Virus record (IMG/VR): IMGVR_UViG_3300032303_003166
Location: 1-64,000 of that record
DNA length: 64,000 bases
Strand: one strand, 5' to 3'
Source: a virus
Lineage: Duplodnaviria > Caudoviricetes
The position numbers were made by a program, and so were the translations under genes. Positions 9,552 to 53,964 of this stretch are shown here, piece by piece. The notes under the pieces were generated by a model. The model had not been told where the DNA came from. It saw nothing but the letters and a program-made list of their open reading frames with translations, and ran no database searches. The number at the start of each line of letters is the position of its first letter. Within the stretch, counting starts at the first letter, position 1.

Positions 9552-9580
9552 AATATAACCACACTAAAAACAAATGTAAA
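9552..9580 (-). promoter_or_regulatory. Sigma70-type early promoter TTTACA-N17-TATATT (representative)
   Basis: Same arrangement at 27638-27666(-), 28105-28132(-, N16), 39139-39167(-), 54119-54147(+), 15503-15531(+, TATTTT). Confidence 0.75.
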
Positions 9581-51005: not shown

Positions 51006-51452
51006 ATGAAAGTAAATACCAAAGATATTGACACTCTTAGGAACAATCTCACCAGATATGTTCAAGAGGTAAAAGATGTCAATATCTCTTTGCATGATTC
51101 TTTACAAAATGTAGAAGAAATGTTAATTGCTTTGCAAGAAACACAAAATGAATATGTGAATCTAATAAAAACTTATAGATATGATACTTCCTCAGATTAT
51201 TATGCTTCATTTACCGGTAATGTTCAACCAAAAACAAAACAGCATGACCTAGCAGCAGACGCGGAATTAAATAAGACACTTAGAAAAGATATAGAAGACT
51301 TAGAGAATGGAATTGCACTAGAGCTAGGAAACTTTAAAAAATCTTTTAAAGAATTTTCTACCTATATACAAGATGCAACAGAAGCTTATGCCCATCATAA
51401 AGAATTGTGGGCACAACTTATAAAAGAAATAGAAAAAGCTCCTAAAAGCTAA
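51006..51452 (+). CDS. Hypothetical helical protein
   Basis: 148-aa coiled-coil ORF. Confidence 0.55.
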   Translation: MKVNTKDIDTLRNNLTRYVQEVKDVNISLHDSLQNVEEMLIALQETQNEYVNLIKTYRYDTSSDYYASFTGNVQPKTKQHDLAADAELNKTLRKDIEDLENGIALELGNFKKSFKEFSTYIQDATEAYAHHKELWAQLIKEIEKAPKS

Positions 51453-53449
51453 GCTTCAAGTACAATATCATCCCCGGTTTGTAGCTGATTGGCCTCAATA
51501 ACATGAATTACATTTTGTCTTTTAACAGACACTTTGTCTTTTTCCTGAAAGATATGTTCATGCCCAGATTCATCTTTAACTCTTAAAAACTTTTTGTCTT
51601 TGGCAAAGATTGGCCAAGCTGTTGAGCTGTGAAAATCTTTTTCCTTGGAATTATAAATCTTTCTAAGAGTTTCATCCTCTGCATCAATTCCTGCAAGACG
51701 AACCTGAAGTGAAGCATAGTCCAGACTAAAAATAACATAATCATCTGATGGAACATCAATAATAGCAGGAATTGTTTCATCATTTGCTGGAATCTGTTGA
51801 AGATTAGGATCCTTACATTTGCTACGGCCAGTGTCAGCTAACATATGAGCATAATTGGCACACATGCGATAACTTCCATCCGAATAAGGATTAATGTTTT
51901 TTCCCCAACCCTCATCATCTGTCTTTCCAATAAAAGTATTAAGAAGAGTATTGGTGGTTCTAAGTTCTTGAAGAAGCTCGGCCTCTCTATGACCCATCTG
52001 CTTCCATCGCTCAAGCTGATCTTCTCCAGTGAGATAGTCACCAGCTTTTGATACTCCAAGATTAGGCCAACCGAGAGCCTTTATCTTGGTTCCTAAAACC
52101 TTAAGTGAATTAAAGTCAAAATTTCCCACAATATTCATTGCTACACGCAATTCTTCTTCAATTTTCTTGATCTTTTCTTGAAACATGGTTCTTGCACTAT
52201 GAAGACGATCCATGGATACATATAGTCCATCATACTCCATTTGAGCAAATGCACGTAAGCTACGCATCATAATATCTTCATAGTATGAGGTCATGGTATA
52301 CCACTTATTCTTTTCATTGGGAAAAGTTGCATCCATCCAGGCCAAATGCTCTCTTTGCTTTTTCCAAACCTGATATGTTACAATAGCGTCCATGGTAGCA
52401 TACTTGGCCAAAGTTGAAAATGGAATCTTAGTATAATCATTTTCTCCAGTGTTCTCAATAAATTCATCCAACTCTTGTTCATAACCACCGTGCTTGGTAT
52501 AAAAATATGAATTGGTCTTGAGGCTATTACTACGTAGCTCATTTAACACATGTCCTAGCTGAACAATGTCTTCATGAATTGCAGCATTAGGAATTCCATT
52601 ACGCCATAAGAATTTACAGTCAAATTTTAAGTTAGCACCTATTTGAGTTTTCTTTCCAAGACATTCATTAAGAACTACCTTATCAACCAGATTCCATGGA
52701 CAAATATAGCCATTTATTCCATCAAAAGAAAAAGTTATAACACCAATCTTGGCTCTTACATGAGAGAAGCCACTTGTTTCCAAGTCCCAAGCCATGTGTG
52801 AATATCTAGAGTGTTGTTTGATAACTCTTATAAACTCTTCAGTGCTTTCAATCTTGTGAAGAATCACTTCATCCAATTCTTGATCTGCTGACAGCTCAGC
52901 ATATTTCTTTTCAGCAGTGTCCAGCTGCCAACGAGCAAAGTTCATCTTATAAGTGTCATAATACGGAGATAGTGATTGACCAAATGTCAATATTTGACTA
53001 AATGAGTCAATTGGAAATACATAACGACGAGTATGTTGATCAAAGAAATAGGTTTTGGGATTGGTAATAACATCATAAAGATAATTTACCTGTAAATCAT
53101 CTCGAGACACAGCATAGAGTGCAGAGCCAGAGGTAATGATAACTCCACGATCCTCAACGTATTGAGAAAACGGAGTCTTGTTCTTCTTGTAGAAGTTGGT
53201 TATACCGCCCTTGATATTTTCTTCAGTGGGTGCAATATATGATGCTAGTACAATACGATACGAATCAAAATACTTTTTAACAAGAGTGGATATTGCTTTA
53301 ACCTTTCTTGTATCATAATGCTTGTCCACAAGCACAAGAGCATAAGGTTCATTCTCAATAAAATTGTCTGCAAGAAGTATCTCTGTGTTTATTTCATCTT
53401 TCAACTTTTTGGATGAAGTTACAGAAATATTTCCAAAAGCAAATGCCAT
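51449..53449 (-). CDS. Family-A DNA polymerase, N-terminal part only (exonuclease through motif A)
   Basis: ExoI WDLETSG, ExoII NLKFD, ExoIII YATMD, TGR...PNLQQIP, motif A DYASLQVR, DFH..TA; motifs B and C absent. Confidence 0.9.
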   Translation of the reverse strand: MAFAFGNISVTSSKKLKDEINTEILLADNFIENEPYALVLVDKHYDTRKVKAISTLVKKYFDSYRIVLASYIAPTEENIKGGITNFYKKNKTPFSQYVEDRGVIITSGSALYAVSRDDLQVNYLYDVITNPKTYFFDQHTRRYVFPIDSFSQILTFGQSLSPYYDTYKMNFARWQLDTAEKKYAELSADQELDEVILHKIESTEEFIRVIKQHSRYSHMAWDLETSGFSHVRAKIGVITFSFDGINGYICPWNLVDKVVLNECLGKKTQIGANLKFDCKFLWRNGIPNAAIHEDIVQLGHVLNELRSNSLKTNSYFYTKHGGYEQELDEFIENTGENDYTKIPFSTLAKYATMDAIVTYQVWKKQREHLAWMDATFPNEKNKWYTMTSYYEDIMMRSLRAFAQMEYDGLYVSMDRLHSARTMFQEKIKKIEEELRVAMNIVGNFDFNSLKVLGTKIKALGWPNLGVSKAGDYLTGEDQLERWKQMGHREAELLQELRTTNTLLNTFIGKTDDEGWGKNINPYSDGSYRMCANYAHMLADTGRSKCKDPNLQQIPANDETIPAIIDVPSDDYVIFSLDYASLQVRLAGIDAEDETLRKIYNSKEKDFHSSTAWPIFAKDKKFLRVKDESGHEHIFQEKDKVSVKRQNVIHVIEANQLQTGDDIVLEA

Positions 53450-53481
53450 AAGGCCTCCAAGTATTCTTGGATAGTATAACC

Positions 53482-53964
53482 TTACTTTTGCCAGTTACTC
53501 AAATTCTTAAGAAAGCTTTGAAAAGAGTTATCTGCTTCTTGTGATATTTTTTTTGAATTCCAAAATCTAAGCTTGAGTGCTTCTTCTGTTTTGTTAGTGC
53601 GACTTTTACCCTCTTGATTAGATCCTATATTTAGGAGATAGCTGACGCTCTCTTGTTTACTTTCTAGATCAACTGCATTTTTTGCACCACTAAGAGCTTC
53701 CATTACAGAAACGCCGTCTTTGGTTTTTAATGCAGAAAGAAGTCCAATATTTCCAGTAGTAAAATCCAATAGATACATGCTATAACTTCCTAGAACAATA
53801 GAGTTTATTTGTCCTACCATCTCATGCATATTCTTTTCTCTGAGAACACCATATAGATTTTCTGGTGCTATCATTTCTTTTCTGTCTGATCCATTGATCC
53901 ATAGATTGATGTAACGGCCGTTGGCGGTGCGTTGCGCAATTGCGAAATACAAATTACTTTCCAT
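53482..53964 (-). CDS. Hypothetical late protein
   Basis: Leaderless start after TACTAAGTA. Confidence 0.6.
   Translation of the reverse strand: MESNLYFAIAQRTANGRYINLWINGSDRKEMIAPENLYGVLREKNMHEMVGQINSIVLGSYSMYLLDFTTGNIGLLSALKTKDGVSVMEALSGAKNAVDLESKQESVSYLLNIGSNQEGKSRTNKTEEALKLRFWNSKKISQEADNSFQSFLKNLSNWQK

Follow-up and report, generated by a model that had tools for sequence, protein, structure and literature searches.

How can a DNA polymerase function when its gene stops in the middle of the polymerase domain? This question is raised by a gene in a 64,000-nucleotide stretch of DNA (hereafter the window) which makes up positions 1 to 64,000 of the IMG/VR virus record IMGVR_UViG_3300032303_003166 (Duplodnaviria; Caudoviricetes), a record of 93.6 kb that was searched in full. 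The gene encodes the N-terminal half (N-half) of a family-A (PolA) polymerase and closes with 46 residues that match neither the polymerase profile nor any Pfam family. The first-pass annotation, made from the letters alone, had listed in it the Exo I, II and III motifs, motif A and the DFHSSTA helix and had noted that the next gene is convergent, and all of these could be placed (Table 1). Our answer, which is drawn from sequence, is that the polymerase of this large uncultured phage probably consists of two chains that pair non-covalently, as a heterodimer and without splicing, through a clasp formed by half of an intein.

The missing part of the enzyme was found in the same record. A profile search of all 93.6 kb gave exactly one further PolA match beyond the N-half, a gene 31 kb away which encodes the C-terminal half (C-half). 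The Exo I, II and III motifs and motif A, by which the enzyme is assigned to family A, are all on the N-half chain; motifs B (R...K...F...Y/F) and C are also present, but on the separate C-half, and with the two chains together all catalytic motifs are accounted for. Judged from these genes, the family-A DNA polymerase of this phage is encoded, as had been proposed, by two genes and is a two-chain enzyme; the genes lie 31 kb apart. A partner with motifs B and C and an extra N-terminal segment had also been foreseen; the partner exists, and the extra segment amounts to only its first 12 residues or so, ordinary pre-O-helix polymerase beginning at SVNDF. The C-halves of nine clusters are all 264-272 residues long and share the conserved start M-K-I-x-S-I. 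No hidden Markov model (HMM) match to PolB or DnaE was obtained in the record, which is about 31% complete according to CheckV, and no match to intein HMMs at E ≤ 1.

Table 1. Features of the split polymerase and its surroundings (window positions unless marked as genome positions)
Feature	Position	Strand	Description
PolA N-half gene	51449..53449	-	666 aa; N-terminal region, 3'-5' exonuclease, thumb/palm with motif A, first fingers helix, half-HINT tail, TAG stop
3'-5' exonuclease domain	52352..52855	-	aa 199-366; Pfam PF01612, E 3e-11
Exo I	52769-52792	-	motif position
Exo II	52610-52639	-	motif position
Exo III	52379-52402	-	motif position
Polymerase domain, N-terminal half only	51593..52210	-	PF00476, E 4e-20, profile positions 2-199 of 381, aa 414-619
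Motif A (catalytic Asp)	51695-51724	-	aa 576-585
DFHSSTA helix	51605-51637	-	aa 605-615
Putative half-HINT tail	51452..51589	-	aa 621-666, 46 aa; four to five predicted beta-strands, corresponding to the final ~45 residues in an N-fragment of a split intein
Convergent open reading frame	51006..51452	+	148 aa; overlaps the polymerase stop; no family assigned; not an endonuclease
Promoter-like 15-mer TAAGGTTATACTATC	53470..53484	-	upstream of N-half; same 15-mer (one Y position) only upstream of C-half, genome 85516-85530 (-)
PolA C-half gene	genome 84709-85512, outside window	-	267 aa; PF00476 profile positions 237-375; motifs B and C
Motif B in C-half	genome 85378-85425		position by motif search
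Motif C (HD) in C-half	genome 84901-84918		position by motif search

In canonical relatives the DxHSxTA helix runs directly into S/T-L-E-E-F-x-K-x-K-K, which is followed by R...K...F...F-G. In the window phage about 58 extra residues stand at that junction, namely the 46 that end the N-half (the tail) and the approximately 12 that open the C-half (the head), which together are referred to here as the module. On the Klenow fragment this site corresponds to the loop between helices N and O, at the fingers. An exhaustive HMMER search gave 4024 relatives, and the best 150 representatives of these were classified: ordinary contiguous enzymes account for 63, in 45 the chain stops, like the window N-half, at 53-70 residues (mostly 57-62) beyond the DxH motif, and about 17 are contiguous with an insert at the break site. 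A homologous module lies unbroken in one chain in about ten relatives (P0122, P0083, P0059, P0102, P0139, P0090, P0053, P0018, P0126 and P0061).

The unbroken module of P0122 (72 residues, from locus L011) was modelled with AlphaFold2 (AF2) from a 54-row alignment, as a natural contiguous stand-in for the two chains. The model has five to six strands at a mean predicted local distance difference test (pLDDT) value of 83.9, and its top 28 or so matches in the PDB by Foldseek were all inteins or Hedgehog proteins (E from 5e-3, TM 0.63-0.67). With VIA, which is independent of Foldseek and covered 48,161 chains, the top 25 matches all belonged to the HINT superfamily, with Z values of 9.0 for the PhoPolII mini-intein, 8.4 for PI-PfuI, 7.9 for gp41-1, 6.0 for Hedgehog and 4.8 for BIL. 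The module covers only the middle of the HINT domains (for example residues 43-105 of the 127 of gp41-1), and in endonuclease-bearing inteins such as PI-PfuI the alignment bridges the endonuclease insertion. The tail of the window gene, modelled as 48 residues (pLDDT 89.0), has the same strands as the P0122 module. Its top 14 VIA matches were again all inteins or Hedgehog (Z 6.7-3.8), and it was aligned to gp41-1 residues 44-88, to residues 53-98 of the 101 of the N-terminal intein fragment (IntN) of Npu DnaE, and to PI-PfuI residues 80-128, with root-mean-square deviations of 1.6-2.4 Å. The weight of these comparisons lies in the uniform match lists and the consistent register, and not in the scores.

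In gp41-1, residues 59-110 form the second of two C2 units, and the natural split site lies inside this unit, before strand beta-6 (bioRxiv 10.1101/546465). Since the unit and the split position both agree with our alignment, the module would be essentially the second C2 unit broken at the natural split site. By predicted fold and remote homology it belongs to the HINT superfamily with this second C2 unit only, and according to the models it most likely represents one of the pair of symmetry-related units that make up the HINT (intein) fold, which agrees with the Hint-like character that the first-pass annotation had seen in the tail.

Sister polymerases provide a closer point of comparison. 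Six relatives (P0039, P0041, P0104, P0137, P0143 and P0150) end in a full split-intein N-fragment of 103-111 aa, which begins at a Cys directly after the R...K of motif B and contains T/S-x-x-H. In P0119 the same intein is contiguous and ends in Asn followed by Cys, and P0150 carries both the clasp module and the live IntN in one chain. When a profile of 40 tails was compared by hhalign with one of seven real IntN sequences, a probability of 97.7 and a P value of 2.5e-12 were obtained, with tail columns 1-43 on IntN columns 60-102 of 103 and the chain ends coinciding. Against each real N-fragment singly the P values were 1e-7 to 6e-11, and controls with a reversed and 20 column-shuffled profiles gave P of at least 0.013. 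For two unrelated inteins from this polymerase family P was 0.006 (P0024) and 0.26 (P0147), and because these matches are far weaker the tail is, by profile comparison, specifically related to the motif-B split-intein lineage. The module, whose site is about 30 residues upstream of that of the live intein, most likely descends from the split intein which is still intact in motif B of the sister polymerases. Moreover, as the end of the tail coincides with the ends of real IntN sequences, the alignments and models place the break at the canonical loop where naturally split inteins are divided and homing endonucleases are inserted.

The assembly of the enzyme can be pictured from these data. Each chain would be expressed on its own, both from copies of one promoter class, and the two would meet by strand complementation of the module together with the native fingers-palm interface, the N-half ending with a globular four-strand part (46 residues) and the C-half opening with the next strand (about 12 residues). 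Such a non-covalent heterodimer would work without splicing, as it would amount to the docking step of a split intein minus its chemistry. In split inteins this docking has been reviewed as 'capture and collapse' of a disordered IntN region with the C-terminal fragment, IntC (PMC11766414).

Several points weigh against pairing through the clasp. The fold matches come from AF2 models of only 48-72 residues, and Z values of 6.7-9.0 and Foldseek E values of 5e-3 or above are reachable by chance. The contiguous relatives keep the module unbroken, so it could have another role, and with only about 31% completeness of the record a second polymerase could lie outside it. The fragments do not carry the opposite charges of naturally split inteins: the window tail has a net charge of -3 and its head -1, and in the family the tails average -4.3 with heads from -2 to +4, as against +9 for the real IntC of locus L015. 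Finally, in the split NrdA of Aeromonas phage Aeh1 the tails are not needed for pairing of the fragments, but for higher-order assembly (PMC3045599). The lack of charge complementarity and the dispensability of the Aeh1 tails for heterodimer formation (PMC3045599) would both be expected if tail and head were tolerated leftovers of an intein or endonuclease invasion and the chains paired by their native interface alone. The same can be said of three contiguous relatives standing next to split sisters (P0019, P0155 and P0109), in which only a hairpin or about ten module residues are left and which look like deletion scars formed after the gene was rejoined. Nevertheless such a neutral scar is an unlikely explanation. 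The length of the tail is conserved over 40 diverged sequences along with Gly, Arg, Ala and Asp positions of structural character (the final Asp in 39 of the 40), the head strand M-K-I-x-S-I is also conserved, and a confident common fold is predicted.

The module could also be a functional insertion in the fingers, that is, an accessory domain making for instance a partner or DNA contact at the fingertip, the break being secondary and placed in the most permissive loop. This is compatible with pairing through the clasp and agrees with the location of the module in the N-O loop at the fingers and with the ten or so relatives that hold it whole in one chain. It would however leave unexplained both the specific homology to a live split intein with coinciding ends and the presence of endonuclease genes exactly in that loop, and we consider it improbable as a full account.

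Could the halves still be ligated by some unconventional trans-splicing? Nearly all members have a Ser or Thr after the head strand, at the +1 position, four C-halves have an Asn just before it, and in sister enzymes a live split intein is at work at a distance of 30 residues. The same Ser/Thr is nevertheless present in canonical insert-free enzymes, and contiguous relatives would keep a permanent insert. The absence of block A and of TxxH, already remarked in the first-pass annotation, holds for the family: among the 40 tails no Cys, Ser or Thr is conserved at the upstream junction as a block A nucleophile, and the column aligned to the His of block B TxxH is His in only eight tails and Lys in that of the window. 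No counterpart was found in the module for the first 45 or so intein residues, nor for blocks F and G with their terminal His-Asn, only about 12 residues preceding normal polymerase in the C-half. In addition, Pfam intein and Hint HMMs gave no match at E ≤ 10 for the tail or for nine contiguous modules (chance-level E1-E2_ATPase and RodZ_C hits only), and the same models do detect the real inteins of P0024, P0147 and L015. Since blocks A, F and G and TxxH are absent and the C-half supplies little more than one strand of 12 residues, splicing by the module appears implausible, and ligation of the halves by any such route is very unlikely.

An independent IMG/VR contig, the one near-identical contig found in a viral contig search, has the same 666-codon open reading frame (ORF) with the same stop, at 98% identity (13 residues differ), and the same C-half, so no assembly break is present. 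Misassembly, a decayed pseudogene or read-through of the stop, which could be invoked as the record is a fragment and TAG is recoded in some phages, were rejected as next to impossible, given the identical end in this contig, the same break in at least 45 clusters with different stop codons, the intact catalytic motifs and the fact that read-through would add only about 17 unrelated codons before a TGA. With a continuous assembly, an existing C-half and a structurally Hint-like tail, the observations that could have overturned the first-pass annotation all turned out in its favour. Its splicing-dead Hint fragment stands as well; that the fragment is 'domesticated' is unproven, as its patchy distribution and the endonuclease genes of relatives fit a selfish cassette equally well.

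This patchiness was seen in a tree built from the polymerase body with the module excluded. The window N-half falls in a well-supported clade of 36 representatives, 31 of them split. Another ten split forms are dispersed over the contiguous enzymes, and a split form can have a contiguous or a canonical enzyme as its close sister. The well-supported branches require at least 12 changes of state, and the real split inteins are equally patchy on the same tree. A single origin of the split state was rejected by the approximately unbiased (AU) test (p 1e-41, with a log-likelihood cost of 2087 for holding the split forms together), a result which recombination between polymerase genes could mimic and for which the group was named after the tree had been seen. 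Among cultured phages the best matches, in T5-like, Vibrio and Clostridium phages, do not exceed about 27% identity, and none has this break. A search of the longer proteins in a set of 5.8 billion with the tail profile returned five of the six input proteins and P0161, near-identical to the window N-half, and is uninformative on other host genes.

In three relatives an additional gene lies at a break, within one operon with the polymerase pieces. Locus L013 has the N-half, a 222-aa HNH_3/AP2 ORF and the C-half in a row, with overlapping stops and starts, and in locus L012 the halves are separated by a 384-aa ORF that matches HNH weakly. Locus L015 (NCBI GCA_016938425.1, contig JAFGUR010000209.1, 1-4332; binned into a Fusobacteriaceae metagenome-assembled genome) encodes a family-A polymerase in three pieces. 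The first is an N-half with the clasp tail. The second, of 137 aa, consists of a head strand, about 24 polymerase residues and a real IntN. In the third, the remainder of the polymerase is fused behind a real IntC whose final Gln precedes a Cys; a TnsA-like endonuclease ORF stands between the second and third. Pieces 1 and 2 are predicted to be joined only by the dead half-HINT clasp, and pieces 2 and 3 by a live split intein. The free-standing endonuclease gene that marks a fractured gene is thus found in L012, L013 and L015. In the window phage, whose halves lie 31 kb apart, the N-half has no endonuclease next to it.

The module probably arrived with such a free-standing endonuclease gene, which would have fractured the polymerase gene; the endonuclease would later have been lost while the halves drifted 31 kb apart. 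A broader proposal is tentative, and we hold it to be somewhat less than an even chance: half-HINT flanks and a free-standing endonuclease may form a mobile 'non-splicing split intein' that breaks polymerase genes and offsets the damage with its self-complementing clasp, the window phage being a late stage that has lost the endonuclease and kept the clasp. Such an element may have come from an endonuclease gene moving ectopically with the ends of a live split intein.

The nearest precedent is the 'fractured genes' model of Dassa et al. (2009), in which the endonuclease is finally lost and the halves become uncoupled in the genome (PMC2677866). As in fractured genes and split inteins such as gp41-1 and Npu DnaE, an essential replication gene is broken at the intein endonuclease loop, relatives have a free-standing endonuclease between the halves, and the 31-kb separation fits the end state of the model. 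A term search of that paper did not find family-A polymerase among the host genes (PMC2677866). The fold and profile of the tail match the ends of IntN sequences; unlike split inteins, however, the module has one C2 unit only, about 58 of the usual 125-140 or so residues, and lacks Cys/Ser1, TxxH and blocks F and G. The live motif-B split intein shares with it the polymerase family, homology over the last 43 residues and the chain end, but lies some 30 residues downstream, has a full-length N-part (103-111 aa) with Cys1 and T/S-x-x-H, and has a C-part that ends in Asn or Gln followed by Cys.

Assembly without splicing also has a parallel. In phage Aeh1 an endonuclease insertion (NrdA-a / mobE / NrdA-b) splits the enzyme, and function is restored by tails, with neither RNA nor protein splicing involved (Crona et al. 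2010, PMC3045599). As here, an essential enzyme is split and short extra tails stand on the broken ends. Crona et al. speculated that these tails are remnants of a degenerate intein (PMC3045599); whereas in Aeh1 the intein link stays at that level and the tails act in dimerisation of heterodimers, in the window phage an intein origin is backed by fold and profile, and the module would be a defined folding unit. Other phages also have replicative polymerases in pieces, namely the T7-like cyanophages of clade B with separate exo and pol (PMC12695635), MEP401-type OM43 phages (PMC10580990) and jumbo phages with split Pol III alpha (PMC7824862), but their breaks lie between domains or elsewhere and no intein-derived module has been reported at them. 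No account of the module turned up in literature searches that covered degenerate or inactive inteins, fractured genes and split family-A polymerases.

These observations can indicate that protein splicing may decay to plain non-covalent assembly in which only the docking half of the intein is kept, something that was speculated for the ribonucleotide reductase tails of Aeh1 and not demonstrated there. One enzyme family offers a natural series of intact gene, contiguous module, clasp-only split, live split intein and both together in three pieces, which opens to testing the question of how essential genes withstand being fractured by selfish endonucleases. Moreover, the module suggests that one C2 unit of the HINT fold is able to exist alone, which bears on the proposed origin of the fold by duplication. 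It is also a candidate for a small, scar-tolerant heterodimerisation tag free of splicing. Half-polymerase genes of this kind are easily annotated as truncated or 'DNA polymerase I-like'.

The sister enzymes deserve a mention of their own. Their intein forms a bona fide family whose insertion site within motif B of family-A polymerases immediately follows the lysine of R...K (split in the six relatives listed above and contiguous in P0119), and no description of this family was found in the literature searched. Other inteins occur in the same polymerase family, in P0024 (aa ~300-634) and in P0147 (aa ~603-810). Because a LAGLIDADG intein lies in the exonuclease domain of P0024, itself an N-half of the clasp type, this polymerase family is an intein hotspot.

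With regard to expression, TAAGGTTATAYTATC precedes both polymerase genes, and these are its only two matches at up to two mismatches in the 93.6 kb. Its core GGTTATAYT occurs 14 times in the record, against 3.2 expected, and nine of these sites are followed by an ORF start at a distance of 6 or 16-23 nt. In four loci of relatives, too, the core stands upstream of the gene for the N-half or the C-half. It is read as an extended -10-like promoter class, and co-expression of the N-half and C-half is inferred from it. Further core sites lie near 9560, 15729, 44924 and 54485, and the 6-nt spacing would give near-leaderless mRNAs.

Some minor features of the enzyme and its surroundings were also recorded. 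At the steric gate the family has Gln in the position of Klenow Glu710 (motif A D-Y-x-x-L-Q-x-R, at 51695-51724 on the minus strand of the window), and in motif B of the subclade to which the window phage belongs, Leu stands in the place of Phe762 and Phe in that of Tyr766. Upstream of the C-half lies a gene that is deaminase-like, as judged by eye only. Directly after the C-half there is a SNF2-family helicase gene wherever the flank was examined, in four loci (downstream of genome 84709, L002:2-1426 on the minus strand, and in L007, L008 and L017), whereas L011, a contiguous relative, has the helicase on the upstream side of the polymerase.

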